A stretch of DNA of 64,000 nucleotides, taken from positions 16,301 through 80,300 of the forward strand of contig JAGORM010000001.1 in assembly GCA_018062815.1 (NCBI GenBank), written 5' to 3'. Made by a program: the position numbers and the translations under genes. Under the pieces are notes generated by a model. It saw nothing but the letters and a program-made list of their open reading frames with translations, was not told the origin of the DNA and did no database searches. The stretch is from Candidatus Levyibacteriota bacterium. GTDB taxonomy: Bacteria; Patescibacteriota; Microgenomatia; Levybacterales; GWA1-39-11. Below, one piece after another: positions 1 through 19,822 of this stretch; position 1 is the stretch's first letter; each line of letters starts with the position of its first letter.

Positions 1-1641
1 AGTTTCCACCTCTGAGGAATTTTGTTTCAGTAGGATTTGCATGGAAGAATTAGATAAAATTGCTTTACCGTAGTCTGAGGATAAAAAGTCTTCTATGTCC
101 TGGGTAAGAGTGGTAACACCCAAATAGTATTTTCTTGCGCGCTTAGCAATTCCCTGTAAAAATGCCGCGGAGTCAGGGTTTTTCATAAGGTACCATGCCT
201 CATCAACTATTAAAATACGTTTTTTAAGTTTAGTCCTAACCCTATTCCAGATAAAATCCAAAATCACCTGCATTGCTACAGGTCGAAGAGACTCCTCCAG
301 TTGTTTTATGGAAAAAACAGTAAGCTGATTTTTGACATCATAGTTAGTTTGTGAATTTAATAATCCGGCAAACCCTCCTTTAATGTATTTTTCCAGTCTA
401 AAAGCTAAATCCTTTGCGTCTGCTTCTTCCATGTTCAGAAGAGTTTTGTATAGATCCTCAAGAATGGGAGGCTCATTTCCAAAAGTTGAAGGGTCAGGAA
501 TTATACCTTTTTGCTTATAGCATAAAACCAGTGCTCGGTCTAAAATTGCCTCCTGGGTTGGGGAAAATTCGCCAAGCATAATCTTAAGAAGTGAGTGAAG
601 GGCTAAAAATTTTATTCCAAGCTGCGCTTCGGTTCTGTCGTCTGAAAGAAGGGCGAACGGATTAATTTTTACTTCAGAGTCCTTTGAGAAGGAGATATAT
701 TCTCCGTCAAGGCCGTGACAGAGGGCTTTATACTCATCCTCAGGGTCTATGATAAGAATTTCTGTGTCAAACATCATTTGGCGCAATACTTCAAGCTTTA
801 CTAAAAACGATTTTCCAGAGCCTGATTTTCCAAAAACAACCGAATTTGCATTTTCAAAGGAGAAGCGGTCCACAATGATAAGTGAGTTATTAAGCGTGTT
901 TACACCATAAAAAATGCCGTTTGGCTGAGAGATTTCGTAGGATGTGAACGGAAACGTTGAGGCAACGGATGTGGTGTCCATATTCCGTGTGATGAACAAT
1001 TTGTCCTCACCTAAAGGAAGTGTTGTTTTAAAACCATCTTCCATTTGAAGCGTTGCTGGTTTTATAACAAGTAAATTTGACGCAAGTAGGGAGGTCAGTT
1101 CATTAGTTTTTTTATCAAGCTCATCAACAGTTTTTGCGGAAAGCGTTACATAAAGCCCGAATTGAAAAAACCGCTCAAGTCCGCGCGCCAACTCCTCACG
1201 TAGAGCAATCGCGTCTTCAAGAGATGCTCTGACCTTGGGGTCAGGTTCTATGCCGTTTTTCATGTCTGATTCAATTGTTGCCTCCATTTCTCCGATTTTG
1301 CGTTTCAAATTGGAGAGAATATCCTTACTTTCGACAGGATATATAAACATAGATACATTCATGGTTTCCTTATAGTCTATGAGTATGGAGAGCCAGTTTG
1401 GGGAAACTTCACGCGGATAATCAATTACAATAAACGTTCTATAGAATGCGTCTCCTACCCTGATGTACTTAAAATCTACTTCAACTGATGAAGGAGCAAG
1501 AAGGTCTATCAGAGACACAGATCCGCTCTTTAATCTTTCAACTCCTCGTGCGACTTGTGGTTGTGTGCTTTCTGGTGTTCCATTAGCCGTTTGTGCAGTT
1601 GTATTTTTTTCTGTTTGTTTTTTCTTTCCAATTCCTAACAT
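1..1641 (-). CDS. virB4: VirB4/TrbE/CagE-family type IV secretion ATPase; C-terminus runs off the window start
   Basis: Manual minus-strand translation from ATG at 1641: MLGIGKKKQTEK... Walker A (FGKSGSGKSF) and Walker B (LIVDEAWYLM). The N-terminal region has the VirB4/TraC N-domain pattern. No stop codon before coordinate 1. Confidence 0.8.
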   Translation of the reverse strand, partial: MLGIGKKKQTEKNTTAQTANGTPESTQPQVARGVERLKSGSVSLIDLLAPSSVEVDFKYIRVGDAFYRTFIVIDYPREVSPNWLSILIDYKETMNVSMFIYPVESKDILSNLKRKIGEMEATIESDMKNGIEPDPKVRASLEDAIALREELARGLERFFQFGLYVTLSAKTVDELDKKTNELTSLLASNLLVIKPATLQMEDGFKTTLPLGEDKLFITRNMDTTSVASTFPFTSYEISQPNGIFYGVNTLNNSLIIVDRFSFENANSVVFGKSGSGKSFLVKLEVLRQMMFDTEILIIDPEDEYKALCHGLDGEYISFSKDSEVKINPFALLSDDRTEAQLGIKFLALHSLLKIMLGEFSPTQEAILDRALVLCYKQKGIIPDPSTFGNEPPILEDLYKTLLNMEEADAKDLAFRLEKYIKGGFAGLLNSQTNYDVKNQLTVFSIKQLEESLRPVAMQVILDFIWNRVRTKLKKRILIVDEAWYLMKNPDSAAFLQGIAKRARKYYLGVTTLTQDIEDFLSSDYGKAILSNSSMQILLKQNSSEVET

Positions 1642-1678: not shown

Positions 1679-2293
1679 CTACACTATAATATTTTTAACG
1701 TCATTTGTTGAGAAGTCTACGTTCATAGTCGTTTGGTTGAAAAGTTCAAAAAATACCCGTCCTAATTCCTCTGCCTTAATGACTCTGCTTGAAAGACCGA
1801 TTCGTTCAATCTGCGTCATAACATTTGTTCTTTTAGTTGCAATCGCCTCTGTAATCCGCATTTCATGTGTCTTTTTGTTGCCTCCTGATGTTGGCCCTAG
1901 CTCTAATGCGTTAAATGGGATTACCACATATGTTTTTTTATCCAATAGTCCGTCTTCTTTTATAAGCTCTTGAATGAAGTCTTTGTATAGTCTTAAGTGT
2001 TCAGCTACTCGTGCGTTTTGAGTAATTGTAATTTTGTGATCAAGGGAGGCAACATATGATGAAAGGTCAATCCTTTTGGAGACAATTACAATTTGGATCG
2101 CAAAAGAAAGAGAATTTAAAAGAGACATGTATCCATATATGCGCGCGTTTTGTTCGTCTTGCGAGAGTAGAAAAAAATTGACGGATGATACTTCCAGAAT
2201 AGAGCATGCATTTTTTCCTTTCAGCAATACGGTATCATCCCGAATGTCTTCGATCTCAATAAATGATTGCGTTGTAGACTTAATTTTAGCCAT
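1679..2293 (-). CDS. Hypothetical T4SS-associated protein; the 204-aa sequence resembles a VirB4 N-terminal domain
   Basis: ORF track; lies between the VirB3-like gene and virB4. The segment IRDDTVLLKGKNACSILEVSSVNFFLLSQDEQ matches the VirB4/TrbE N-domain pattern. No ATPase motifs. Confidence 0.4.
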   Translation of the reverse strand: MAKIKSTTQSFIEIEDIRDDTVLLKGKNACSILEVSSVNFFLLSQDEQNARIYGYMSLLNSLSFAIQIVIVSKRIDLSSYVASLDHKITITQNARVAEHLRLYKDFIQELIKEDGLLDKKTYVVIPFNALELGPTSGGNKKTHEMRITEAIATKRTNVMTQIERIGLSSRVIKAEELGRVFFELFNQTTMNVDFSTNDVKNIIV

Positions 2294-2302
2294 GGACAGG
2301 TT

Positions 2303-3418
2303 TTATAGAGTATTATGTGCTACTCCAAATAATTCACGTCTTAATTTTTCGCGTTGATCAACGGATATTACCTGAATAGGTTGAGCCACTGATCCGTCAA
2401 GCGTTATTCTTTTGTCTTGAAAGTCCTGTTTTTTTAACGTGTCTTCCATGTGTAGCGTATACATTCCGTTTGGAAGCGGAGTTGCTGCTCTAAAAAAACC
2501 ATTTGCATCAGTTCGGAACGTTCTAAGTGGCACATTTTGAGTATCAAGCACTTCCACAATGATATGAGGTAGCGGTTTTCCTCTTGGGTCAAGTATTTTG
2601 CCTTGTAAAATGTTTGCTATGTCTATGCCCCCCACAGACACTTGGGGAGGTGCTACTTGAGTTGTAGGTGGCGCTTCATCTGCTGCAGTAGTAGGGGTAG
2701 TAGTTTGAGCAGTTTTAACAGCGGGTGCTGTTTGGTTTGTAGTTTCCTGTACTGGAGGAATCGGAGTTTCCGCATGAGGGGTAGATAGTTTCTGTGTTTC
2801 AACTTCTGACACATGCGTAGCGTATGCAGGAGAAGTAGTTATCGCAGAAGCTTTTTTTTCATCTGCAATAACTTTGGTTGTAGCGCCGCCTTGTTGCATA
2901 GAACCATCTTTAAAAAGGTTATTTACGTTTTCTACCTGAGATTTTTCATCAGCATCAGGCTTAAAGTAAGAGCTTGCAAGTTGATTAAAAAGCTTTGCTT
3001 TTTGTACAGCTGCGCTGTCCTCAGAGGTTGAGCTGGTAATGTTAGTGTGAGAAGGAGGAATAAATGTAAAGTATGGCATTTGCGTTCCGTGTTTTTTATA
3101 AATATACTGATTTTCCGCGGGAATTGCCTTAAAAAAGTTGAAAAGCATTTTGTCCATAGGCCTTCCGTCAATAGGTACAAATGCCAGGCAAAGACCAACA
3201 CCCCCTGAGAGAAACATAAATGGAAGCTTTAATAAAAATGGAATTGGAAAGAAATAGAACAAAAGTGCAAAAACCCCGCCACCTAAAAGATATAGAAACT
3301 GCTTTACCGTAACAGATCCTATAAGCCTAAATTTAAATCCTGTAACATCCTGCGGGATTGGGTGATTTTCCATATAGTACAGGGTATAACGTGAAACATA
3401 TGCTTTCAAGATTATCAA
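2303..3418 (-). CDS. VirB3/PrgI-like two-TM membrane protein with a Pro/Thr-rich linker and a C-terminal carboxypeptidase-regulatory-like beta-sandwich domain
   Basis: N-terminal FRLIGSVTVKQFLYLLGGGVFALLFYFFPIP hairpin, typical of PrgI/VirB3 proteins encoded just upstream of virB4. The C-terminus GKILDPRGKPL..TDANGFFRA..LPNGMYTL is CarboxypepD_reg-like. Confidence 0.45.
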   Translation of the reverse strand: MIILKAYVSRYTLYYMENHPIPQDVTGFKFRLIGSVTVKQFLYLLGGGVFALLFYFFPIPFLLKLPFMFLSGGVGLCLAFVPIDGRPMDKMLFNFFKAIPAENQYIYKKHGTQMPYFTFIPPSHTNITSSTSEDSAAVQKAKLFNQLASSYFKPDADEKSQVENVNNLFKDGSMQQGGATTKVIADEKKASAITTSPAYATHVSEVETQKLSTPHAETPIPPVQETTNQTAPAVKTAQTTTPTTAADEAPPTTQVAPPQVSVGGIDIANILQGKILDPRGKPLPHIIVEVLDTQNVPLRTFRTDANGFFRAATPLPNGMYTLHMEDTLKKQDFQDKRITLDGSVAQPIQVISVDQREKLRRELFGVAHNTL

Positions 3419-3621
3419 AATAGGTCAAAAAAAAGATAATCTGTGCGTAGCGTGAAAAGCGTTGTGTTTTCTTGACATGCGCTTATGTTTTGCCGTACCA
3501 TGAATAGTAGAATGTTTGTAGCGTTTCTGTTATTTTGATGTCAAGAAGAGTAGCATAAAGAATCCTATAATATCAGAATATAAATAGGTAAAAGACTCTT
3601 ATGTAGGAATATTTTATAAAC

Positions 3622-3966
3622 ATGGAATTTACACAGGAAAAGAAAAAAAAGGTTGAGAAAATGATTGTTGATTCAATGATAGATGCGGTAGGCGCAGGAT
3701 TTGTCCAGGAAGACGCTCTCCCCAATATTTCTGAGTTTGTATTAAGCAGGATGGATACTATAAAAAATGAAGAAGAATTAGTCGCATTCCTTATTGAGCT
3801 TTCTCAGAAATGGTCATTTTTCTTGCCGATTGAACGCTTCATTGAAGGGGAAGCAAAGGAAGTAGAAGATAGAAAATCAGTAGATAAGGCAGAAAATCTT
3901 ATAAAAGGTGGACAATTAGATCAAGCGCTGCAGGTTTTAAAAGCTGCAGAGAAAGGAGGACTTTAA
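3622..3966 (+). CDS. Hypothetical acidic protein (114 aa)
   Basis: ORF track; contiguous with the downstream gene (5-nt gap). No recognisable motif. Confidence 0.4.
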   Translation: MEFTQEKKKKVEKMIVDSMIDAVGAGFVQEDALPNISEFVLSRMDTIKNEEELVAFLIELSQKWSFFLPIERFIEGEAKEVEDRKSVDKAENLIKGGQLDQALQVLKAAEKGGL

Positions 3967-3970
3967 GTTT

Positions 3971-5917
3971 ATGTCAGCACCAACATCACCAGACATGGGG
4001 AAAATAAAACAAGAGGCTATTGTACGAGCAATAACCGGTAAAATTGAATTGACTGATGCTGAGAAGGGGGAAAAACAGCATGAAATGGCGGCAAAGATTG
4101 CCGAGAAAAGCTTGAGAAAAAAACGCGGAGATGAGGGTAATGATCACGCTTTTATGGAAGGGTTAAGAAATCAAAAAAAAGGAGTACAAGAAATCCCCAC
4201 AGGAGATGAGGTAAAAAAGGTAATTGAAGGTGCACATATTAGTGCTGAGGATAAAAACATTGCAGATCAAACAGAGGAAGTACTGCGGGCAGTTTTCTCA
4301 GGGGATAAGGCATACTTAGAGACTCAGGCAGCAAGAACAAGCGATTTTTTAATTGCTCCAATTCGGGAAATGATGGGAAGGGACCCTGTCTTTAAAGAGA
4401 TAGCAGATGGTATTGACAAGAGCCCTGCTTCTCTAAACCAATGGGTTGATTTTGTCACGGAGCAGTTAGATTCAGGTCGCAGACCAGGAGATAACTTGTT
4501 TATGGATGATCTTCAGGCAAAATACAAAACGTTTATGGAGAAGGACAGAGAAGATTCCGTAAGTACTACGGTGATTCAAAGAAAACTTGAAAGGCAGTCA
4601 GCAAAGGAAAAGGCATTAAACGATCAGTTTGAATCAAAATTAAAAGAGGCTGGTGCGAATAGGGATAGGAAAAATGAATTTGCAAGTACAGAAAAGGGTG
4701 CAGGAAAAGATTTAATAGATTTAACACAGAAAGCTGATGATGAGAAGAATGATAGAGAGCGGATAGAGCGTGAGCTTGGCGCACTAAACTCAGATAGGGC
4801 AAGAGCACAAGAAGACGCTCTTAGCCAGAATAACCTCATAAGAAAAGACGCTGAGGTAAAGTTGCGTGAATTAAGAGATAGTATCTCTAAAAAGGAGATA
4901 GAGCTGACTCCATTTAAACAAACAATTGATAAAAAAAATGCCTTGATTTCTGAAAGAGACGGATTGGATTCTGCATATACAAAAATTTTAGACGATCAAG
5001 ATAGTCTTGAAACTCAAATTGAAGTTGCGGGTAAAGAAAAAACAAAGATAGAGGCGCAGCTTGCAAATGCCGGAGGCGCAAAAGATAAAGAAAACTTTAT
5101 AAAGGAGTTTAAGGCTATTATGGGAGACGCGTTTAGAGACACAATGCTTGCCAGATTTGACGCGGAGCAGGCAGGCGTCAGTGAATCCCTGAAGGAGTTT
5201 ATAGAAGCAGCGCGCGATCCGCACGTTAAGGCAGCATTAGAACAACTTTGGGACAGTCATAATCGTTGGAAGGATTGGGATTCGGCTTGGAAGACCCGGC
5301 TAAAGATTCCTTATGGTCGTAAAGAGGAGCCTAAGATGCAAAAAGATCTTATGAGGGAAGATGTAGATATTTTACTCAAAGAGGGTCCTGAAGGTTTTAT
5401 GAGAAGATTTCTTCATCAAAAGATGGATCCTGATACAAAAAACGCAAGTCATCCTTACGGAATGGTGTACTCAAAAGAAAAGATAGATGAACTGATTTCA
5501 GATAAAGACTTTATGGATGCCGTACAGCCAAAGGCTGCAGGATTATTGGTTCGTCAGGCTGTTAAGGCAGGTGTGCTGTCTGAGCGTCAAATGGCAGAGT
5601 TGAGAGATACAGAATGGGGAATGAGCGCAATTGAAAGCGCACTCATGATGGACAAAACAGCTGTAGAGAGCGGTAGGGCACACCAGGCAATAGACTACAT
5701 AAAGAAACACCCAAAGTTTGCATGGTGGATGCTTTTCACTATCTTGTGGCCGCCGGCAGGGTTATTTGTTGCGGGAGCATATGCAGGTAAGGAAGTTGTC
5801 TCAGGGATGTTTTCAGGCAAAAATAAAGATCACGGAGGTCATGATAAAGCGCCTGTAAATGTTGAGCCGCCATCTTCACCTCAGGCAGTACAATTGCACC
5901 CCGCGCCTGCTCATTAG
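3971..5917 (+). CDS. Large coiled-coil, tail-anchored protein (C-terminal TM WWMLFTILWPPAGLFVAGAYAG)
   Basis: 648-aa ORF rich in K/E/D/R heptad-like segments with a single C-terminal hydrophobic helix. Only short ORFs, inferred spurious, lie on the opposite strand. Confidence 0.55.
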   Translation: MSAPTSPDMGKIKQEAIVRAITGKIELTDAEKGEKQHEMAAKIAEKSLRKKRGDEGNDHAFMEGLRNQKKGVQEIPTGDEVKKVIEGAHISAEDKNIADQTEEVLRAVFSGDKAYLETQAARTSDFLIAPIREMMGRDPVFKEIADGIDKSPASLNQWVDFVTEQLDSGRRPGDNLFMDDLQAKYKTFMEKDREDSVSTTVIQRKLERQSAKEKALNDQFESKLKEAGANRDRKNEFASTEKGAGKDLIDLTQKADDEKNDRERIERELGALNSDRARAQEDALSQNNLIRKDAEVKLRELRDSISKKEIELTPFKQTIDKKNALISERDGLDSAYTKILDDQDSLETQIEVAGKEKTKIEAQLANAGGAKDKENFIKEFKAIMGDAFRDTMLARFDAEQAGVSESLKEFIEAARDPHVKAALEQLWDSHNRWKDWDSAWKTRLKIPYGRKEEPKMQKDLMREDVDILLKEGPEGFMRRFLHQKMDPDTKNASHPYGMVYSKEKIDELISDKDFMDAVQPKAAGLLVRQAVKAGVLSERQMAELRDTEWGMSAIESALMMDKTAVESGRAHQAIDYIKKHPKFAWWMLFTILWPPAGLFVAGAYAGKEVVSGMFSGKNKDHGGHDKAPVNVEPPSSPQAVQLHPAPAH

Positions 5918-5960
5918 AAAAAAAGACACTTTCAGGGGAAACGTTTATGTTGTTTGTATT

Positions 5961-6308
5961 TTATTGTGTTTTAGGAGGACTCAACAATTGATTTAACCCT
6001 ACTCCCGTGAACTGAGACAAGAGATTTATCATGACAAATGACAGCATGATTATCACTAGCCCAATAATTGCGTAAGTGAGTCTTTTTCTTGCGTTGTCCA
6101 CTTTTTCTTTATCTCCTGAAGATGTTACATATTGGTAGCCTGAGTAAATGATAAGAAATACGGCAACCACGCCGGATAAGATGAGCGCTGCATTAATTAC
6201 ATTTTGTAGTACAACCCACACGCAAGATAAGGTAGCCACCCCTGTTCCGTTTGGGTCGCCTTCAATTTTTTTGACACATGATCCCCAATCTTTTGTAAAT
6301 AAATCCAT
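5961..6308 (-). CDS. VirB2/TrbC-like T4SS pilin (hairpin two-TM pilin)
   Basis: Motif YSGYQYVTSSGDKEKVDNARKRLTYAIIGLVIIMLSFVMIN: pilin-loop signature S-x-GD-x-x-K-x-x-x-A(R/K) between two hydrophobic helices. Confidence 0.65.
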   Translation of the reverse strand: MDLFTKDWGSCVKKIEGDPNGTGVATLSCVWVVLQNVINAALILSGVVAVFLIIYSGYQYVTSSGDKEKVDNARKRLTYAIIGLVIIMLSFVMINLLSQFTGVGLNQLLSPPKTQ

Positions 6309-6369
6309 ATGCTTTTAGCATAAAACAAATATGAGAGATAATTCAAGGGGAAAGGCAAGTAGTGCAGTA

Positions 6370-6834
6370 CTATTGATTTACCGAGGGACTAGGGCCATTT
6401 CGAAGTGAAGGTATTTCAAATCCAGTAGTAAGGTAATTACCTGTAAAGATGTAAAGGACAGCGTTTATAATAACGTAGGCTAGTATAACTATAATAAGTC
6501 CCACAATAGCCGCAACTATAGTAGAGCGTGCAGTATCAATTTTCCCTTTATCTCCTCCTGAAAGAATCCACCTGACGCCGCCATACAAAAGGAAAATAAG
6601 GGACAGGACAATTCCAATAACTATAATAGCGTTTATAATAAAAGCAATCAGTTCATTTGGTGTCACATCAATATTTCCGATTGATTTAGGTGACTTAATT
6701 ATTATAGGTTCAATAGTATCAGCAAAGACTGGAGTTGCTGTAACTGACATAAGAAGCGTACCAAAAGAAACTGACGCGGTATTTATAACTTTTTGCAGAC
6801 TCATATAATTATTAGAACATGTTTTTTTTTGCAT
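6370..6834 (-). CDS. VirB2/TrbC-like T4SS pilin paralog with signal peptide and short N-terminal extension
   Basis: LLYGGVRWILSGGDKGKIDTARSTIVAAIVGLIIVILAYVIIN, the same hairpin-pilin signature. Signal-peptide-like N-terminus. Confidence 0.6.
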   Translation of the reverse strand: MQKKTCSNNYMSLQKVINTASVSFGTLLMSVTATPVFADTIEPIIIKSPKSIGNIDVTPNELIAFIINAIIVIGIVLSLIFLLYGGVRWILSGGDKGKIDTARSTIVAAIVGLIIVILAYVIINAVLYIFTGNYLTTGFEIPSLRNGPSPSVNQ

Positions 6835-6848
6835 GTCAAGAAGCGTTA

Positions 6849-7175
6849 TTATTTTCCTAACTCTTGCAGTACCTGCGCACCCAGAATAAAGCCTATAATT
6901 CTTACAATAGTAAATGACAGAAGGATTATGATAAGCCCTACAATTGAATACGTGATAGTACGCCTAGCGCGGTCAATTTTAGTTTTGTCTCCTTGAGACG
7001 TAATCCACAAAACACCTGCATACAGCATAAAGATGAGAGAGGCAATAATTCCTATTACAACTATCATTCCTAATCCAAAACTAATAATATCAGACGGAGC
7101 ACTTGCTCCTGACGGGATGTTTTCAGGAGTTTGTACCTCTCCATACCCTGGTAGTGTTAAAGATAAGTATTTCAT
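6849..7175 (-). CDS. VirB2/TrbC-like T4SS pilin paralog
   Basis: MLYAGVLWITSQGDKTKIDRARRTITYSIVGLIIILLSFTIV signature. Confidence 0.65.
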   Translation of the reverse strand: MKYLSLTLPGYGEVQTPENIPSGASAPSDIISFGLGMIVVIGIIASLIFMLYAGVLWITSQGDKTKIDRARRTITYSIVGLIIILLSFTIVRIIGFILGAQVLQELGK

Positions 7176-7176
7176 A

Positions 7177-8802
7177 TTATTGAAGGCCAGGTATTCGTAA
7201 AATGTTTACACCAATAAACTCAAGTATTGCAATTGAGAGAATAATAAATATTAATCCTGTGATTGCAGCGGTTATTTGCTCACGTGCTTGTCCCACTTTT
7301 TCTTTATTTCCCGCGGATGTCATAATGGTGTATCCTGCGCGGATAAAGAAGAGAACAGCAGCTACTCCTCCGATAGACAGCACTATGGTAAATATGTCGC
7401 GTACAAAAAATTGAGGCTCAGTGCTGATTTTTATCCCAAGAGCAGTTGGAATTTTTTTACAATACCCAGTTGCTTTATCAATATCAACAGGATCGCAAAG
7501 TGGTCGGGGAGGGAACCATGGAATTGTGGCTCCCAACTCCTTGCCATATGGGTCTTTTATGATTGTACCTATTGAGCCTTCTCCTCCTCCACGGGCTATA
7601 GTAAATGTTATAAAATACAGAGTGAAATCGTTAGGCTCACAGGTGATACCATTTTTGTTTTTCTTTAAATCTCTCCCGTCTTTAATTTTTAATATATATT
7701 TCCCCTCAGTAAGTGTTGCAATAACATTTCCGTCAGAGTCTTTTGATTCAGGGCTTAAAAAAATGGTGGCTTTTCCTGTGCTTGCTTTTGGGTCTGCGCC
7801 TTTTTCAACAAGAAGGCATTTAGGCTCACTTCTATAGTCATTATCCATTCCCTCAATCTGCATCCAGTAGTCATTATATATGTCCTCATTTTTCCCCGAT
7901 TTAATGTTTCTTCCTTTCAGCTCTACTAAAAAATCCCAACCTTTTTTCATGTTGTCGGTATTAAGAAGTTTATTTTTCTCATCTCCCTTAGGGAGTACAA
8001 CTTCAGGGTAAAAATGACTGACATAAAAGTCTGCGTGCGCTTTTACGTCATTCGGATTGACGCTCTTACTATCTTTCCCCTGTGACAGATAAACATGATA
8101 AGTTTTTCCTGCATGGAACCAATCTCCATCTACCAGGTTAGTGCTTTCTGTGCAGTCTTCTTTTAGAGTTTTTTCTCCGTCCCCGCACAGCTTTGGTAGT
8201 ATGATAGTCCCGTTTGAAACTGTTGCTTCATTCCAATCGTCATCGCTGCAGTCCTCCGGCTTACTTTTAAGGCAATAAAAATATTTGGAATTTTTTGTAG
8301 GATTAGAAATATTTTTAAAATACACTGAAACAAAAGGAACGCTTTCGTCTATATATGGCTGGTTATTTTTCTTATCTTTTTCAAGTCCACGTGTAGCACC
8401 TAACCCTTTGCAAATGTAATAAGATTCAGAAGTTATACAGTCTTCAAGTGTGGGGTTATTGATTTCATCCAAAAATCTGTCTTCGTTAGTGTTCCCTTGT
8501 TCATCAGTGCAGGAGGTATTTGTAAAAAGATTTGCATCATCAATAGTTGCCGGAAATTTGCCGCCTAAAGTTCCCAGGTATGTGCAAATCGTGTTGCACG
8601 CTGTAGGGTTATCACCGGTAGCATATACGGTTGAGAGATCTTTCATTGAAACCAGAGTTCCCTTTACGGTTTTTTGTACGTTTTTTTGACCGGTGCAGAC
8701 ATCACTATAGTCACGTCCGGTAAATACAACACCTGCCGCGAATGTAGGGGGAACGTAGTACAGACAGATAAGAAGGAAGAAAAAAAGGATAAGTTTCTTC
8801 AT
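7177..8802 (-). CDS. Secreted Cys-rich ~450-aa extracellular domain fused to a C-terminal VirB2/TrbC-like pilin module; candidate tip adhesin or minor pilin
   Basis: Signal peptide MKKLILFFFLLICLYYVPPTFAAG and many Cys residues. C-terminus IRAGYTIMTSAGNKEKVGQAREQITAAITGLIFIILSIAIL carries the pilin signature. Confidence 0.6.
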   Translation of the reverse strand: MKKLILFFFLLICLYYVPPTFAAGVVFTGRDYSDVCTGQKNVQKTVKGTLVSMKDLSTVYATGDNPTACNTICTYLGTLGGKFPATIDDANLFTNTSCTDEQGNTNEDRFLDEINNPTLEDCITSESYYICKGLGATRGLEKDKKNNQPYIDESVPFVSVYFKNISNPTKNSKYFYCLKSKPEDCSDDDWNEATVSNGTIILPKLCGDGEKTLKEDCTESTNLVDGDWFHAGKTYHVYLSQGKDSKSVNPNDVKAHADFYVSHFYPEVVLPKGDEKNKLLNTDNMKKGWDFLVELKGRNIKSGKNEDIYNDYWMQIEGMDNDYRSEPKCLLVEKGADPKASTGKATIFLSPESKDSDGNVIATLTEGKYILKIKDGRDLKKNKNGITCEPNDFTLYFITFTIARGGGEGSIGTIIKDPYGKELGATIPWFPPRPLCDPVDIDKATGYCKKIPTALGIKISTEPQFFVRDIFTIVLSIGGVAAVLFFIRAGYTIMTSAGNKEKVGQAREQITAAITGLIFIILSIAILEFIGVNILRIPGLQ

Positions 8803-8843
8803 ACCTTAATCATAGGGGTTTGCCCTTTCTAAAGTCAAGAAAT

Positions 8844-10175
8844 TTATGGAACAAAGCGGTATCCTCGGCCCTTTATAGTTATAAGGTGTGTCGGGTTATT
8901 CGGGTCTTCTTCAATCTTTCGTCTGACTCTGTATATAATTTGGTCTAGTGCTTGGTCAGTTACACCTTCCCGTGTTTTTTCATCTGACCATACGGATCCA
9001 ATTATTTCCTCTTTTGTGCATACCTTATCAGTGTTTTGAATTAAAAATCTCAGCAGCTTAAATTCTGATGGAGAGAGAACATCAGTTAGTGATTCGTTTC
9101 CGTCTTTTATCTCTTGAGTGTTTGCGTCAAGCGTTATTTTTTCAGTTGCAGGATTTGGGAAGTGAGACAAATTTTTTAAAAACAAAGGTATTTGAATCTC
9201 CCCATTTTGGATTAGATAAGAGCGTTGTAGAAAGGAATCCGCGGAAGCTCCAGCAGGGGATTTAAGAAGTATTTTTTGCTCTATCGGTATTAGTGAGTTC
9301 CAGATTTCAATCAATGCTCCTTGAATTGCTGCTTTTGACAGCAAAAAAGCTGATAAGTCTTCATATTTTTCTTCCTCCCCAAGTACTGTTTCAAGTGCAA
9401 TTCTGGACAATTTTCCGTGTCCTGCGGTGAGTTTTAGGATTTCTTTTTTTGTATTTTCTGACGCTTTTCTTCCGCTGGTTTTTTCAAGATAGGAAAATCT
9501 AAAGTCATTAGTTTCAGGATCTGAAATAGGTAGAAATACCTGGTTTCCTACAACAAATTCATAAAAGTCAGAAAAAATAGAGGGTTCCAGTAGATCTTCC
9601 AGGGGGCGGGTAGTTGAAAAAACCGCTGAAAATCTGTATTTTGCCCTGTTTCTTAATACCCGTAAATTAGTAAAGAAATGTTCATTTATGCAAGGAAAGT
9701 ATGTGTCAAATCTGTCAAAAAGTAAGACTATAGTTAGCTCCCGTTCTATGGATAAGTAGTCAATTGCGCGTTTTAATGCCTGGAAAAGGATTAATTCATC
9801 CTGAAAAGAAACCGCTTCCTTGAGAATTGTGTTTATAGCATCTTGATCTTTGTCCATTTTCCGCTCTGACAGGGAATAGGAAAGGGAGATTAGGATAAAT
9901 TTCACCAATTCATAAAAACTTCTGCCCTTTATTTCTGACAAGTCCATGTACACAAAGTGGTACCACTTATAGTTTTCCCCTAAGTGTAAGGTTCTGAGAG
10001 CGTTGTTATACGCTAAAAGCCTTAGAGTGTTTGACCGTCCTACGCCGGGTAGGCCTAATACCTGTGCTGAGTTCCCTTTTTTAATATATGAAAGAATTTT
10101 ATCTATCTCCGGTTTCCTTGCGGACGGAGGGTATAAAGACTCAAAATGCACAGGTTCAGAGGTTGGAGTAGCCAT
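8844..10175 (-). CDS. Transcriptional regulator: N-terminal AAA/STAND-type NTPase fused to a C-terminal OmpR/PhoB-type winged helix
   Basis: Walker A GLPGVGRSNT and Walker B-like IVLLFDRFD. C-terminus SPSEFKLLRFLIQNTDKVCTKEEIIGSVWSD...ITIKGRGYRFVP is the trans_reg_C signature. Confidence 0.6.
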   Translation of the reverse strand: MATPTSEPVHFESLYPPSARKPEIDKILSYIKKGNSAQVLGLPGVGRSNTLRLLAYNNALRTLHLGENYKWYHFVYMDLSEIKGRSFYELVKFILISLSYSLSERKMDKDQDAINTILKEAVSFQDELILFQALKRAIDYLSIERELTIVLLFDRFDTYFPCINEHFFTNLRVLRNRAKYRFSAVFSTTRPLEDLLEPSIFSDFYEFVVGNQVFLPISDPETNDFRFSYLEKTSGRKASENTKKEILKLTAGHGKLSRIALETVLGEEEKYEDLSAFLLSKAAIQGALIEIWNSLIPIEQKILLKSPAGASADSFLQRSYLIQNGEIQIPLFLKNLSHFPNPATEKITLDANTQEIKDGNESLTDVLSPSEFKLLRFLIQNTDKVCTKEEIIGSVWSDEKTREGVTDQALDQIIYRVRRKIEEDPNNPTHLITIKGRGYRFVP

Positions 10176-10248
10176 ATGTTAGTTTATTGTAAGCTACCTA
10201 TAAGGATAATATCAAGTTTGCAGGCGTATTTTCTCATATACTTGCCTC

Positions 10249-13200
10249 ATGAATGAAAGATTGTTGCCACAAGAATTGACAGCGGGAAGGGTATCTTCTA
10301 CACTTAATGTAAGGAGTACTATGCCAGAACCACAGAAAGAAGAATTCAATATTCCCAAAAAAATTGATAGACAGCCACTTGTTGCGGGAAGTACTTCTCC
10401 TCGTCCAGAAACTATGCAGGAGCTTATGCGTGGGCAGGCAGAACGTGAGGCAGCCCGTGCCATAGTGGAGGAGGCCAGGAAACAAGGAAAATCATTGTCT
10501 GAGGATCAAAAAAAGATTGTTTTTGAATCTGGTTTTAAACCAACTATTTATGGAGGTGCTGATGTTCCTGAGAATGATGACTATAATCCAGACAATGGAG
10601 AAGGTGAGGAAAATCAGAGGCCAGAGGTTGCAAGAAGGGGTTTTGAATTGAGACCTCCACGAGGTGTAGCTGCCGACAAACAACTTCTTGATGAAATAGA
10701 AAAATTTAATAATGTCAGTGAATTAGGTGTTGATTTTGATGATCTTAAACGCGAGGCTGAAAAAATTATGGATCTTCAGTCCTCAGACCCAAACAACCCA
10801 ATTACGTCAGAGCAAAAACAGGACCTGATAAGACAGCTTTCAAAAAAAGGACAAGAAATAGCGGCGGCAAGAATGAATAACCCGGATAGATTTGGGTTTT
10901 ATCTTGAAACGCAGGATTTGCGTGAATTAGATAGTGACCCTATGTCATGGTTAGATTCTCAATTCGGTCAAATATACGACTTGTCTAAGGCGGGAAGTGA
11001 GTTGGATTCTCCTATTTTGCAACGTGTACAGACAGAGGTGGGAGAGGCATCCGCTTATCTTCAGAAAAAATTTGGAAAATTCAGAAAAGAAGGAATAGAA
11101 AATGCAGCAGACATTGAGCGCGCAAATAGAGAGAGTAAGTTGCTACTAGAGTTTAATGAAACGTTTGCTATCAGGTTAAACCTTATTTTTGCAAGAACGG
11201 CAATTGACCAAAGGGGTATGGAGCAAATACAGGGAGCGGTAGGAAGGCTAAGGACATTAGGATTTGCAGGAGCGCAAGCTTTTGATAACGGGGCAGTTGG
11301 CGCTATGTATAACCGTATGGAAGCGATGCTTGGAAACTTGCGACTAGCTGAGGGAGGGCGTGAGCATCATCTTAACCCTGCATCCTTAAACAAGCTGCAG
11401 GATAAAACTATAGATGAGCAGATAGAGCTTGCAAAAAAGGGAGTAGGCATATTTGCAGGTAAATATAAAGAGATCTTATCAGATCCAAAAAAGCAGAATA
11501 ATGCTGATGATGTTTTAAAGCGGGAGATTACCAGATCAGTTAGAACGGCTTATGACATTTTAGTTGTATCTCAGAGAGTTGCAATTGTTGCTGCGAGGGG
11601 TAATTTTAGAGGAGACAGACAGCAGTACTTTTCTGATAACGGAGGAGCATTTGCAGTATTCAATTTAGAGCAAATGACAATTAACAAGTGGGATTTATTA
11701 AATCATGAAGAGCAGGAGTTCTTTGATTTTCTCAAGCTTGACATGGCAATTAATAATAAAAAGGGGATAGATGTCTCAAAGCTAACACGTGAACAATTGT
11801 TGGATTTAGGGGGGAGATTGTTTAGGGATTTATATGTGGTTCCTGATTTTTATTCATCCTCATGGAGAATGAATGGAATGAGAGACCAATTGGGGCGTGT
11901 AATTCAATATAAAGCGGAGAACGATAAAATGATTGAAAAGTTTATCGAAAGTTCTAATTTTACTCCGGCTGATGAAAATCTCAGAAGTTTGCAGGAGCAA
12001 ATGAGGACACAGATCCAGAATTACATGCAGGTATGGGATGAACTGAACCCTGTGCAGGGAAGGGTACAGGGAGACAGGGAAATAGCACAAAGACAAATTT
12101 CCCGTCAGATGTTTGAGAAGACCTTAACGCGTGAGCAAAGAGAGTTATGCCTTAATACACTTACACAGGATGAGAAGGCGAATGTTTTAAACACTACAAT
12201 AAAAAAGGCTGGTACACAATTAGGGAAAGAGATTGGAGATTTTGCCTTATTTGTACAGCTAAAACAGAGCTTGGGGCATTTAGGGCACAATGCTGGTTCA
12301 GCGCAGGAAATAAAGGATTATAGAGCTGGGGTTTGGGGAAAGATTCAAAAATTTAAAACAGAAGATATTATGCAGTTGATAAGAGGCCGGGCACGACCGG
12401 ATATATATACGGAAGACTACAATAATCTACGTGAGTTGTATACTCTTTTTGAGAGAAACGATTCAGAATTGGGGATATTAACAAATGAGCAAAAAGAATT
12501 GCAAAAAACGGGGGGGATAGAGGCATTTCATACATATGATAAATTTATTGAGAAATATGGGTCTGTAATACAGGCAATACGTCAAGATGCGATGCGAAAC
12601 GGTTTAACCGGTCCAGAGCAGGTAGATATGGCTAACTTAAGCCCTCGACATGTGGAGATGGTGAACAGAATGTTAGGAGGGAATGGGGCAGCGGTTACTC
12701 TCCAAAATATTTATAAGGACATGAATGGGTTTATAAATCGTCATAATATTATTAATGATTTTGTTACAAGTCAAAAGTATATAGATCTTTACAATAGAGT
12801 AATAAACGTAGAGGATGTAATGCTCGACACTCTTGAATCAATACCTGAAAATGCAGGATTCCAGAAGTTGTCAGAGTATTTTACTGCAGAATCAGGGGCA
12901 GATGCTTTGAAACGCAATTTTAATGATATAGGAAATGCAGTTAATGCAGGAAACGCATTCATTAAATTTGTTACAACTGAAGATAAGGAGGGCAGATTTA
13001 AAGAATCCAAAGCTATGAAAAGCGCTGTGGAGGCATATAATGGTCGTACAAATGGAGCTGAAGTTATGCGATTTACTTACGGGACAGAATTGTTATACGC
13101 AACTCAATATTATTGGATTAACACCTTGCGTTTAGGCGCACTGCCATTCAGAAAGCCAAGCTCCATGAAGCAGGAGCATTATGGTATTGGTGCAAAGTCT

Positions 13201-13434
13201 TTGACACGACAAGATGTACGAGGGGATTTGGATCATCATAAAACAGAATTTGTAGGGCGCGGATCCGATGCTGATAAGTGGTTTCTTCAACTGGAGGAGT
13301 TGACGGGAACAGATATGAAGTCCACAATGAAAAGAAACGCGCTAACGCTTTTGATATACGCGTTTTTAGGGATTGTTATAGGAGCTCCGGTAGGTGCAGC
13401 CTCCGCAGCATTAGCAGGAGCACAGAAAGGATAA
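10249..13434 (+). CDS. Giant (1061 aa) mostly helical hypothetical protein with a C-terminal TM anchor
   Basis: ORF track; divergent from the regulator gene. Disordered acidic N-terminus, no enzymatic motif. C-terminal LTLLIYAFLGIVIGAPVGAASAALAGA helix. Confidence 0.5.
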   Translation: MNERLLPQELTAGRVSSTLNVRSTMPEPQKEEFNIPKKIDRQPLVAGSTSPRPETMQELMRGQAEREAARAIVEEARKQGKSLSEDQKKIVFESGFKPTIYGGADVPENDDYNPDNGEGEENQRPEVARRGFELRPPRGVAADKQLLDEIEKFNNVSELGVDFDDLKREAEKIMDLQSSDPNNPITSEQKQDLIRQLSKKGQEIAAARMNNPDRFGFYLETQDLRELDSDPMSWLDSQFGQIYDLSKAGSELDSPILQRVQTEVGEASAYLQKKFGKFRKEGIENAADIERANRESKLLLEFNETFAIRLNLIFARTAIDQRGMEQIQGAVGRLRTLGFAGAQAFDNGAVGAMYNRMEAMLGNLRLAEGGREHHLNPASLNKLQDKTIDEQIELAKKGVGIFAGKYKEILSDPKKQNNADDVLKREITRSVRTAYDILVVSQRVAIVAARGNFRGDRQQYFSDNGGAFAVFNLEQMTINKWDLLNHEEQEFFDFLKLDMAINNKKGIDVSKLTREQLLDLGGRLFRDLYVVPDFYSSSWRMNGMRDQLGRVIQYKAENDKMIEKFIESSNFTPADENLRSLQEQMRTQIQNYMQVWDELNPVQGRVQGDREIAQRQISRQMFEKTLTREQRELCLNTLTQDEKANVLNTTIKKAGTQLGKEIGDFALFVQLKQSLGHLGHNAGSAQEIKDYRAGVWGKIQKFKTEDIMQLIRGRARPDIYTEDYNNLRELYTLFERNDSELGILTNEQKELQKTGGIEAFHTYDKFIEKYGSVIQAIRQDAMRNGLTGPEQVDMANLSPRHVEMVNRMLGGNGAAVTLQNIYKDMNGFINRHNIINDFVTSQKYIDLYNRVINVEDVMLDTLESIPENAGFQKLSEYFTAESGADALKRNFNDIGNAVNAGNAFIKFVTTEDKEGRFKESKAMKSAVEAYNGRTNGAEVMRFTYGTELLYATQYYWINTLRLGALPFRKPSSMKQEHYGIGAKSLTRQDVRGDLDHHKTEFVGRGSDADKWFLQLEELTGTDMKSTMKRNALTLLIYAFLGIVIGAPVGAASAALAGAQKG

Positions 13435-13446
13435 AAAGTAAAAATA

Positions 13447-15162
13447 TTATCTTCCAAACATTCCCCTAAGGAATTTTTTGCCTGCTTCTGCTGCGTGGAG
13501 TTGACCATCTTTGCCATACTCTGCTTTTGCTCCAAATGCCATTTCCTTAACCCCACTAATTCCTTTTCCTCCTACTGCCTGAGAAGCACCAAATGATGTT
13601 CTAATATCTTTCAACCCAAAGTCCATAGCGCCAACTGCTTTTCTGGTACGGTCTAATATGCTTGGCATGGATATAATAAAGCCAAAACCTATAAATGCAG
13701 CCAGGGCAGGGCTTCCACCGACAGCGTCTCCTATAAGTGGAGGAGAAAATAGTCCGCCCTGATTCCCCACATTACTCATAATAGTTTTTCCAAGTAGTAT
13801 TACCCCAAATGCCATAGGAAAGACTGATAAATGGCCCATAAGATGCCTTATCCAAGTAGAAAATCCTAATTTACTTCCCGGAAATATTCCGGCAGTTATC
13901 CAAAGCGGGGCAACTATTACGTCAATTAACACATAAATAAAGGACTTAATAAGCGTAAACCATACCCTAAATAATGAGAAGATAATAGCAATAAGGATAA
14001 TTAAAAATGTAACAATTGTAAAAAGACTGATAATTGCCGCCCTGAAGAACGATTCCACAAAATTACATCCACCCCCCGCAAACATTCCCCCTATTGGAGT
14101 ATCTCTTAACCATCCTCCCAATCCTGGTACCCATCCCAATGCCCCTAACCCTACTGTTGCTCCTACCTTACCCAGGTCTACCACCCCGCACCCAATAGAG
14201 CTAACGGCGTTAAAGGGGGTGAAGAAGACCTGGAAAAAAGATGAAATGGTTGACTCTAAAAAGTCTATGGACATATTTCCTAAAACCTTACTAACCCCAA
14301 ATGAAGTTTGTCCTGCAATCCCGATTATCCCTGGGATATGAGTAATACCAATTACGTTTGGAGTATCTATGCTAAAAGATTTGTTTACAACGCCAAATAC
14401 GGTGGATGAGGTATTAACATTTGTAGGTATAAGACTATTAAAAGTTAAGATAACAAGATAAAGGGATACATACATAAGGTCTATAAGAAGTCCTGCAATT
14501 GCGTATGAAAAAGTGACTAAAATAAGAGCTACTATTAGTTTTGGAATTTGGTTTTGAATACTCATAACAGTACGCGCATCAATTTTTACTCTAAACATGA
14601 TTGCAAGTCCAACAATGGTAAATGCCAAGACAAACGCGAGATAAGAAATATCTCTAAATCGTGCCCAAATTCCAAGAAGAGGGCGCAATCTATCAAATCC
14701 TACCCCGGTTTCCTCTGGATTATTTTGTGCATAAGCGCTGCGTGCTACCCCAAAGTTTCCAGCCATGTATGTTGCATAATCTACCCCTGAAACAGGCAGC
14801 ATAAATGTTTCTCCTATAAGTCTTCCCATAATTTGCGTTGCTCCACCTCCTTGGGTTTCATATCCTATTTGCCCACTATTTACATCTACTCCCAAACATG
14901 TTTTTTTTGGGTCTAGGGGGTTATATCCTGAAAGTATGCAGACAGTGCTTGATAAGGTGTTGATAATGGCTGATTGAGTAAGAGTATTAAGATTTTGAGG
15001 AGCTTGAGAGTTAACGTTTCCGTATAATATTTGACTGTTCGTAGTTGGGGCAGTGGTAGTTGTGGGCGTAGTAATTGTCGGTGCTTGAGCAAGAATGGGT
15101 TTTATGCTGCTTATTACAAGAAAGAAGACAAGAACGTATAGAATATGTTTTAGTTTATTCAT
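13447..15162 (-). CDS. VirB6/TrbL-like polytopic membrane protein (start moved to MNKLKHILYV)
   Basis: Signal peptide followed by a Thr/Pro-rich segment and at least 8 predicted TM helices. Lies in the T4SS-like locus, convergent with the 1061-aa gene. Call rests on architecture only. Confidence 0.45.
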   Translation of the reverse strand: MNKLKHILYVLVFFLVISSIKPILAQAPTITTPTTTTAPTTNSQILYGNVNSQAPQNLNTLTQSAIINTLSSTVCILSGYNPLDPKKTCLGVDVNSGQIGYETQGGGATQIMGRLIGETFMLPVSGVDYATYMAGNFGVARSAYAQNNPEETGVGFDRLRPLLGIWARFRDISYLAFVLAFTIVGLAIMFRVKIDARTVMSIQNQIPKLIVALILVTFSYAIAGLLIDLMYVSLYLVILTFNSLIPTNVNTSSTVFGVVNKSFSIDTPNVIGITHIPGIIGIAGQTSFGVSKVLGNMSIDFLESTISSFFQVFFTPFNAVSSIGCGVVDLGKVGATVGLGALGWVPGLGGWLRDTPIGGMFAGGGCNFVESFFRAAIISLFTIVTFLIILIAIIFSLFRVWFTLIKSFIYVLIDVIVAPLWITAGIFPGSKLGFSTWIRHLMGHLSVFPMAFGVILLGKTIMSNVGNQGGLFSPPLIGDAVGGSPALAAFIGFGFIISMPSILDRTRKAVGAMDFGLKDIRTSFGASQAVGGKGISGVKEMAFGAKAEYGKDGQLHAAEAGKKFLRGMFGR

Positions 15163-19255: not shown

Positions 19256-19804
19256 ATGCCAATATATACAAAAACCGGAGATCGCGGTAAAACGTCACTC
19301 TTTTCAGGAAAGAGAGTTTATAAAGATGACCTTAGAGTAGAGACATATGGGACACTAGATGAACTAAATTCTGCTATTGGACTTAGCATTTCTTATATAT
19401 CTAATACAAATAAAAAGAGTAAATATATAGCTCACATACTTACAAGCGTGCAAACAACCCTTTTTTACATTGGGTCCTACTTTGCTGACCTTTCAGATAT
19501 AGTAAATGACATTGATTTTGAGAAAGAACTTAAAACCTTTGAGGATTCGATAGATCACATGATTTCTGAAATGCCTGCTTTTAATAACTTTGTGTTGCCT
19601 GGTGGGGGACAGGCAGGGGCCAGTTTGCATGTAGCAAGAACCGTTGCAAGACGCCTAGAGCGCCTTACGGTACGACTTAATAAACGCGATAAAGTTGATC
19701 CGCAGGTTATTAAGTATATAAACAGACTCTCAGATCTTTTGTTTGCTATGGCCCGTTATGCAAACTTTATAGAACGCAAAAAAGAAACAATTTGGGAGAG
19801 ATAA
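19256..19804 (+). CDS. pduO: PduO-type ATP:cob(I)alamin adenosyltransferase
   Basis: MPIYTKTGDRGKTSLFSGKRVYKDD...ETYGTLDELNS is the PduO/MMAB family N-terminal signature. Confidence 0.8.
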   Translation: MPIYTKTGDRGKTSLFSGKRVYKDDLRVETYGTLDELNSAIGLSISYISNTNKKSKYIAHILTSVQTTLFYIGSYFADLSDIVNDIDFEKELKTFEDSIDHMISEMPAFNNFVLPGGGQAGASLHVARTVARRLERLTVRLNKRDKVDPQVIKYINRLSDLLFAMARYANFIERKKETIWER

Positions 19805-19822
19805 AAATAATAATCAAAAATT

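Follow-up and report, generated by a model that had tools for sequence, protein, structure and literature searches.

Two large tail-anchored proteins in a T4SS-like locus

The DNA analysed here (the window) comprises 64,000 nucleotides of contig JAGORM010000001.1 (positions 16,301 to 80,300, forward strand; assembly GCA_018062815.1) from a member of Candidatus Levybacteria, with a G+C content of about 37%. At its left end lies a chromosomal type IV secretion system (T4SS)-like cluster of the Patescibacteria with genes for VirB4, a TrsD-like protein, PrgI/VirB3 and four VirB2-like pilins, and within this cluster stand two long open reading frames (ORFs), ORF-A and ORF-B, whose products (A and B) each end in a single hydrophobic segment (Table 1). 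NCBI lists an identical copy of A, from a Candidatus Levybacteria metagenome-assembled genome (MAG), under the name hypothetical protein. B proves to be consistently paired with a polytopic membrane protein, here called C, and A with a small acidic protein, s114. We tentatively propose that B is a subunit of the T4SS-like machine and that A and s114 are an accessory pair.

Both reading frames run uninterrupted over the spans given by the original prediction, and it was right that neither has a credible alternative on the opposite strand, where only ORFs of 80-89 aa occur within A and B. Its treatment of positions 3971-13434 as one feature has to be given up, because five minus-strand genes (the four pilin genes and a regulator gene) separate A from B. 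A and B are real genes under purifying selection, with orthologues at the equal position in many genomes. In comparisons with two collinear relatives (dS ~1), B has a ratio of nonsynonymous to synonymous substitution rates (dN/dS) of 0.09, A one of 0.15-0.18 and C one of 0.06-0.08. The two proteins are different things that share an architecture, namely no signal peptide (neither has an N-terminal hydrophobic signal), a helical bulk and one C-terminal anchor. A relationship between them was considered and rejected (BLASTP E 0.27; hhalign probability 0.3%).

Table 1. Features of the locus, with positions in the window; the two large proteins and their partners are listed first
Feature	Position	Strand	Evidence or remark
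ORF-B, 1061 aa, ATG; all-alpha, tail-anchored, founder of its family	10249-13434	+	uninterrupted ORF
B residues 1-30, N-terminal motif ELT..R..SSTL...STMPEP	10249-10338	+	common to most close family members
B residues 1-200, variable, disordered N-terminus			
B residues ~205-560, conserved domain 1	10861-11928	+	near-invariant R365, R429, D436, R450-G451, G521, D533, W539-R540
B residues ~561-660, clade-specific variable insert	11929-12228	+	
B residues ~661-1025, conserved domain 2	12229-13323	+	R778, D855-D856, R889, D893, G979
B residues 1029-1056, C-terminal membrane anchor LTLLIYAFLGIVIGAPVGAASAALAGA, then QKG	13333-13416	+	
C, polytopic membrane protein, ~571 aa from conserved Met	13447-15162 (ORF listed to 15378)	-	convergent with B
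ORF-A, 648 aa, ATG	3971-5917	+	uninterrupted ORF
A residues ~198-366, long helices / coiled-coil segment	4562-5068	+	AlphaFold2 model, heptad heuristic
A residues 583-606, tail anchor FAWWMLFTILWPPAGLFVAGAYAG, then 42-aa tail ending ...APAH	5717-5788	+	
s114, small acidic protein, 114 aa, isoelectric point (pI) 4.7	3622-3966	+	stop 4 nt before A
VirB4-like ATPase, partial, continues past left window end	1-1641	-	library scans
TrsD/TraC-like protein	1679-2293	-	library scans
PrgI/VirB3-like protein with CarboxypepD_reg domain	2303-3418	-	library scans
Four VirB2-like pilin-domain genes (115, 154, 108, 541 aa)	5961-8802	-	PF18895 matches; NCBIfam Mbov_0395 pilin-like match; hydrophobic segments
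541-aa pilin fusion: signal peptide, ~440-aa Cys-rich ectodomain, C-terminal VirB2-like pilin domain	7177-8802	-	
443-aa regulator-like protein: N-terminal Walker-A (GLPGVGRS), C-terminal OmpR-type winged helix	8844-10175	-	Pfam, NCBIfam
SpoIID-like cell-wall protein	26884-28590	-	13-15 kb from B
Type IV coupling protein (T4CP)-like (TraG/TrwB/DUF87) ATPase	28763-31195	-	13-15 kb from B

The B family and its pairing with C

A word-indexed search returned 11 homologues of B, and a scan of one genome per GTDB species gave 15 B loci, of which all the informatively named ones are Levybacteria/Levyibacteriota. An exhaustive profile search over 1.84 billion representatives recovered 119 B clusters, 86 of them at E<1e-30. 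In a second tier of relatives (P0096-P0128; E 1e-33 to 1e-4) only profile positions ~820-1077 are matched, which correspond to B residues ~820-1025 plus the anchor, and Pfam detected no informative fused domain in six unusually long B relatives. No name was attached to any of the clusters of remote B relatives. Conservation was computed over 79 full-length sequences (78 family members and the window protein), and the near-invariant R, D, W and G positions that it reveals in two domains (Table 1) are typical of a folded, conserved multi-domain protein. The insert between these domains is the stretch of lowest identity even in comparison with close relatives; family-wide, gaps amount to 66-73% over residues ~561-640 and to 32% at 641-680. 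The AlphaFold2 (AF2) model of B is all-alpha (predicted local distance difference test, pLDDT, 67; predicted template modelling score, pTM, 0.64), with residues 1-130 disordered and the remainder made of many packed helices. The N-terminal motif at residues 1-30 falls in the low-confidence, probably disordered region.

The hydrophobic C-terminal segments quoted in the original prediction are present in both proteins, that of B with a Kyte-Doolittle value of 2.13 and that of A only moderate (19-residue maximum 1.52). The anchor is found in 87 of the 101 full-length B-family members, with ~7-24 residues beyond its hydrophobic core, and the mean net charge in the family is +1.65 in the 12 residues before the anchor and -0.08 in the 12 after it (n=95). 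Because of this positive bias upstream of the anchor, the positive-inside rule would place the N-terminal bulk of B in the cytoplasm. The description of both proteins as dominated by charged coiled-coil sequence stands only for a part of A (residues ~246-366, 16% of its length, by a heptad heuristic); the same heuristic finds no coiled coil in B, where charged residues make up 28%, inside the range of the neighbouring proteins.

The C gene lies tail to tail with B, separated from the B stop by 12 nt. Its product begins with a signal-like N-terminus and includes at least six hydrophobic helices, at least five being the mark of a polytopic VirB6 in a T4SS cluster. Weak matches to TrbL/VirB6 (PF04610) occur in 2 of 15 members of the C family (best E 0.0038), and this is the sole Pfam family matched more than once by C members; a search of C against PDB sequences gave no match, and the locus has no VirB6 other than this candidate. 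A survey of Patescibacteria T4SS calls VirB6 ‘scarce’ among the Microgenomatia and takes this as ‘suggesting extreme sequence divergence’ (Quinonero-Coronel et al. 2025, PMC12102498). C is probably a highly diverged VirB6 of Microgenomatia, and a good candidate for that subunit.

To compare relatives, the window proteins were mapped onto 22 fetched loci by phmmer, together with the gene calls of those loci. A C homologue stands convergent after B in every locus with a readable downstream flank, and a second B-C pair (L016) occurs in the MAG that holds L013. The pairing extends to two loci of the remote tier, L023 and L024, whose B-like proteins align to the B profile in its C-terminal part only. 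These B-like proteins are ~21% identical to each other, and their C-like proteins are 28% (L023; over the aligned region, BLASTP, E 4e-31) and 21% (L024; by alignment) identical to the window C. No other unit of the locus is as tight as the B-C pair.

In most loci a regulator, four pilins, PrgI, a TrsD-like protein and VirB4 are encoded divergently from B. B has the pilins as neighbours in most distinct loci, and PrgI/VirB4 in about a dozen, at identities as low as 26-35%, and the regulator was detected divergent from B in 14 distinct B loci. The link to a T4SS that had been claimed for both large proteins is thus strong for B, through its pairing with C and its place at the pilin block, and partial for A, which shows it in about half of lineages. 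In L005, a distant relative, two minus-strand genes for 23S ribosomal RNA intervening-sequence proteins (PF05635; 7649-8011 and 9433-9804 of that locus) lie on either side of the regulator gene, in the interval from the pilins to B.

Searches for known relatives

The earlier statement that the two proteins belong to no recognised family is confirmed. A and B have no match in Pfam, NCBIfam, PADLOC or PHROGs, and s114 and C gave nothing usable. Against PDB sequences, B returned nothing either as a single sequence or as a family profile, and the A profile returned generic coiled coils only (E at least 0.015, none significant); Foldseek against PDB found nothing below E 0.1 for A or B. Pfam, NCBIfam, PDB profile and fold searches showed no homology of A or B to any of the established T4SS subunit families (VirB1-11, VirD4, Prg/Trs/Tcp). 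Confident homology to SMC-like proteins, chemoreceptors or any other family, named beforehand as the finding that would overturn the prediction, did not emerge: the best match is an archaeal SMC-related NCBIfam model at E 0.024 and 13 bits, against a cut-off of 300 bits.

Further matches and identities were set aside. Matches of A to alpha-pore-forming toxins (AhlB/SmhB/MakA) have E 0.5-2 and a probability of at most 0.2 on a model of pLDDT 53, and they were not counted as evidence. A relaxase or other DNA-processing enzyme is not indicated by any HUH, Rep or other catalytic family match, and B, with neither a Pfam DotU match nor a fold match, is not a member of the TssL/DotU family.

A and its small partner s114

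A consists of a variable N-terminal region, a central coiled coil, a C-terminal domain of ~130 aa, the tail anchor and a short tail ending in His. AF2 places helices at residues 198-238, 243-283 and 288-366 with block-mean pLDDT of ~56-89, exceeding 70 only at ~220-330. The anchor has Pro-Pro in its middle, and the charges flanking it are roughly balanced. A diverges so rapidly that a word-indexed search found only four close homologues, even with a profile, and orthologues were found by synteny (position) together with a local iterative hidden Markov model. A-like proteins of 592-694 aa are present in ten loci (nine distinct), with identities of 16-30% among lineages except for two close relatives at 68-70%. 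All of them have the central coiled coil and the C-terminal domain, which carries a conserved W-G motif, and the hydrophobic segment at the C-terminus is found in 10/10.

Directly upstream of every A-like gene with a readable upstream region is a homologue of s114 (nine distinct loci; the A-like gene of L015 is cut at the contig start, so that its upstream region is not readable). The pI is 4.4-5.8 in nine of ten s114-family members. The last ~18 residues of s114 resemble one tetratricopeptide repeat (TPR) helix, and no Pfam family reaches its cut-off.

In about half of lineages the s114-A pair has PrgI on one side and the pilins on the other. It was not detected inside the T4SS cluster of L013, L014, L017, L020, L021 and L022, where PrgI abuts the pilins; in L022 the pair lies ~5 kb outside the cluster, and in L014 a short A-like pair adjoins C. 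Because the pair sits in the cluster of only about half of lineages and elsewhere in others, A is an accessory, mobile module and not a core part.

Extra s114-like copies were observed next to C in L014 (14536-15868, minus strand) and L022 (15484-16324, plus strand), each preceding a short coiled-coil protein (329 or 172 aa) with a hydrophobic C-terminus, which suggests a family of pairs made of a small partner and a tail-anchored coiled-coil protein. A terminal His after a Gly-rich tail (...GGGH, ...GGHH, ...APAH; the tail of A is at 5789-5914) was also observed in 9 of 101 B-family members (including P0048, P0058, P0068, P0076, P0082, P0087, P0113 and P0125), in 5 of 9 A-family members and in one C homologue (L022); only 2 of the 48 large ORFs in the window end in His, one of them being A.

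Replacement of alleles between strains

In DNA, L001 and L008 share 92-96% identity across the two flanks of the locus and over most of the locus itself, but four segments show no DNA similarity: s114 with A, the ectodomain of the big pilin, B from codon ~31 to its end, and an internal segment of C of ~130 aa. Lying between the B segment and this internal segment, the 3' part of C reaches only 68.7% identity. With L008 and L009 the window is collinear throughout. Against L001, with flanks at 82%, its non-similar segments are 3552-5987, 7447-8785, 10341-13585 (which takes in B plus the end of C) and 14013-14467 (the C loop). In both comparisons, window with L001 and L001 with L008, DNA similarity stops ~92 nt into B, the first ~30 codons being kept. 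Identities between the window and L001 are 95% for VirB4, 99% for NrdR and 80-83% for the small pilins, then 55% for C, 48% for the large pilin, 35% for s114, 33% for B and ~17% for A.

The B of the less related L003 is closer to that of the window (41-43%) than is the B of L001, and the difference is therefore due to allele replacement and not to local fast evolution. Replacement of B and of part of C between L001 and L008 is consistent with co-adaptation of the two proteins. P0001, a homologue of B, is 98% identical, with one 50-residue patch (B residues ~251-300, 10999-11148) at 68% and the rest at ~100%; this suggests a short recombination tract within B, and thus patchy recombination. It is also evident that a cobalamin adenosyltransferase and the next ORF of 458 aa (19256-21199, plus strand) are 50-60% identical to those of L001, L008 and L009 within flanks of ~80-82% nucleotide identity. 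Mosaicism is therefore not confined to T4SS genes, and it is not specific evidence.

Other genes of the locus

The 541-aa pilin fusion, whose ectodomain is hypervariable from strain to strain, is a candidate adhesin or pilus-tip subunit. The regulator-like gene is divergent from B with 73 bp between them, and its product, a P-loop protein with a C-terminal DNA-binding domain and no receiver domain, is likely to be a regulator of the locus with an unusual architecture. A scan for promoters and terminators found sites no commoner than in shuffled sequence. The SpoIID-like and T4CP-like proteins are possibly VirB1-like and coupling-protein parts encoded away from virB4. A lies 4 genes and B 10 genes from the VirB4-like gene, both inside the criterion of ~20 coding sequences of PMC12102498.

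To the right of C come a DUF5667 protein and then the housekeeping genes nrdR, a ribonucleotide reductase gene and smpB. An origin as cargo of a prophage or an integrative and conjugative element was rejected, since synteny of the locus with nrdR and the gene for ribonucleotide reductase is kept across Levybacteria. Farther along the window, two plus-strand genes in succession were observed to encode unusual domain combinations, a Kelch-repeat and Peptidase_C39-like protein (35787-37982) and an ATP-cone with an Mrr-type restriction endonuclease domain (38049-38870).

Relation to known secretion systems

Patescibacteria T4SS are related to the monoderm mating-pair formation class MPF-FATA (PMC12102498; Wang et al. 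2023, PMC10633639), and the locus shares with them VirB4, a separate TrsD-like protein, PrgI/VirB3 and a divergent array of VirB2-like pilins, as well as the lack of a nearby relaxase, the chromosomal position and the distant T4CP-like gene. It differs from what is set out in the survey (PMC12102498) in having the VirB6 candidate C and an obligatory tail-anchored neighbour of ~1000 aa, B; the available parts of PMC12102498 and PMC10633639 contain no description of A-like or B-like proteins or of the regulator. The only genetically studied T4SS of Patescibacteria is that of S. epibionticum (PMC10633639), in which SEML1_0011 (998 aa) and SEML1_0013 (1088 aa) are essential proteins of the T4SS cluster with ARM-repeat-like helical domains; SEML1_0013 matches TrbL/VirB6 and SEML1_0011 matches a ‘type IV secretion system protein’ (PMC10633639). 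Such extended VirB6-like proteins (see also the FEMS review PMC12857230) hold a polytopic VirB6 module and a large helical hydrophilic module in one protein. C and B together have a comparable combined size, but they are separate polypeptides encoded on opposite strands and B has an anchor of its own. The likeness is offered as an analogy only.

B also recalls TssL and its relative in type IVB secretion, DotU/IcmH, in lacking a signal peptide, in its all-helical domain (predicted to be cytoplasmic in B), in its single transmembrane helix at the C-terminus and in having its gene within the machine cluster; TssL and DotU measure ~200-260 aa, against 1061 aa for B. TssL is a C-tail-anchored cytoplasmic subunit of the type VI secretion machine (PMC3426401).

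The s114-A arrangement, in which the gene for a small acidic protein immediately precedes that for a large helical protein bearing a hydrophobic segment, is like that of secretion chaperone-substrate gene pairs. Known pairs of this kind are VirE1-VirE2 of Agrobacterium and those formed by the TPR-type class II chaperones of type III secretion translocators. The resemblance is a general one, and s114 is unlike the known chaperones in having no homology to them and one TPR-like helix rather than a TPR domain.

Possible functions of A and B

Our preferred reading, to which we give a probability of roughly 0.4, is that B is a lineage-specific core subunit of the T4SS-like machine that partners C on the cytoplasmic face of the membrane, with A and s114 as an accessory pair. 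B looks like a machine subunit because of its invariant pairing with C, its conserved anchor, the charge bias, the purifying selection and the near-invariant residues. Its helical body of ~1000 residues would lie on the cytoplasmic face, held there by the tail anchor, and would contact C, the candidate for a divergent VirB6 channel or pilus-assembly subunit. In this position B could serve as a platform close to the membrane, linking the VirB6-like subunit with VirB4, with the distant T4CP-like ATPase or with substrates. By analogy, B may contribute in trans what the extended VirB6-like proteins of Saccharibacteria contain in cis, a large helical hydrophilic module. A would be a coiled-coil tail-anchored protein, and s114 probably its dedicated binding partner or chaperone.

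Several observations weigh against this proposal. B and C are convergent and hence not co-transcribed. The positive-inside rule is the one basis of the predicted topology, the anchors are only moderately hydrophobic (median 1.85 versus 2.3-3.1 for the pilin helices), the idea of a split extended VirB6 is an analogy, and the AF2 model of A is poor overall (pLDDT 53). In L005, B, C, the regulator and the pilins are present with no VirB4 within 10 kb. Wholesale allele replacement alongside an extracellular pilin domain is, moreover, more typical of host-contacting or secreted proteins than of scaffolds in the cytoplasm.

This last point bears on a second explanation, in which A and/or B are T4SS substrates that are exported and insert the C-terminal helix into a host membrane as a tether, translocon or effector, A being kept insertion-incompetent by its small acidic partner and the alleles mirroring host specificity or an arms race. 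Such a role is doubtful, although a number of observations fit it. s114 with A, B, the pilin-fusion ectodomain and the C loop are swapped between strains with 92-96% identical flanks, the local patch in P0001 suggests patchy recombination, the anchors are moderately hydrophobic, and the first 30 residues of B survive the swaps, as a docking motif might. The order of s114 and A is like that of VirE1-VirE2 chaperone-substrate pairs, and s114 ends in a TPR-like helix; no small acidic gene precedes B, unlike A. The T4SS of Patescibacteria has been inferred to export proteins and not DNA, with no substrate named in the available parts of the two reports (PMC10633639, PMC12102498). However, B is present in every locus examined, rigidly with C even in remote relatives, which is the behaviour of a machine part and not of an effector repertoire. 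Its dN/dS of 0.09 holds within an allele class and many of its near-invariant residues are charged, no secretion signal is known for Patescibacteria T4SS-like systems, and mosaic replacement also hits nearby non-T4SS genes.

A third explanation, which we consider unlikely, separates B and C from the secretion machine and takes them as a self-contained membrane module, for example a transporter or an envelope-maintenance system with B as cytoplasmic regulatory subunit, A being an unrelated coiled-coil membrane tether. It would account for the B-C pair being the sole invariant unit, since in L005 and L006 the pair is present with VirB4, the TrsD-like protein and PrgI absent within 10 kb, and for the second pair in the MAG of L013. 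The neighbours of the pair in L023 are Fic, HicB-like and DUF3800 proteins, and only 2 of 15 C members give the weak Pfam matches on which the VirB6 identity is based. Yet L023 also has a T4CP-like ATPase 2.5 kb upstream, and the regulator and pilins adjoin B-C in most distinct loci, joined in about a dozen by PrgI, the TrsD-like protein and VirB4. TrbL/VirB6 is moreover the only repeated Pfam match of C in a locus that otherwise has no VirB6, and C co-varies with the big-pilin ectodomain.

Still less probable, and to be taken as speculation, is that s114 with A, B, the pilin-fusion ectodomain and the C loop form an exchangeable ‘host-specificity cassette’, in which A and/or B would be the first identifiable T4SS substrates of Patescibacteria, delivered into the host membrane for a feeding or attachment junction.

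That A and B are surface proteins with their bulk outside and a C-terminal anchor, forming a coat or fibrils at the attachment interface, is very improbable: their allele swapping parallels that of the extracellular pilin-fusion domain and the long coiled coil of A is of a kind found in many surface fibrils, but neither protein has an N-terminal signal peptide or any other N-terminal hydrophobic segment, the charge bias assigns the N-terminal side to the cytoplasm, no route is known by which ~1000 residues could cross the membrane, and cell-wall-binding motifs, sortase motifs and Pfam surface domains are all absent. Among the roles suggested by the original prediction, none of which is demonstrated, a scaffold component thus fits the B-C pairing, a translocated protein is kept in view by the allele swapping, and a surface fibril is the least likely because of the missing signal peptide and the charges flanking the anchor.

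Implications for the Patescibacteria

The T4SS-like locus of Patescibacteria has itself already been described (PMC12102498, PMC10633639, PMC12857230). What the present analysis adds is two protein families within it that have no model, the obligatory pairing of B with C, a candidate for the VirB6 of Microgenomatia, the coupling of s114 with A and the cassette behaviour at strain level. The family is narrow, essentially confined to Levybacteria, and its function is inferred, so the immediate reach of the finding is limited. The machine is nevertheless essential for epibiotic growth in the sole species tested, and VirB8 is mostly undetected in such systems. The locus yields candidates for its parts, namely a VirB6-like protein, a tail-anchored partner of ~1000 residues and a chaperone-like pair. 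Unlike VirB4, PrgI and the small pilins, s114 with A, B, the big-pilin ectodomain and part of C are swapped between ~95%-identical strains, and these swapped genes are a short list for work on host range or transported cargo.

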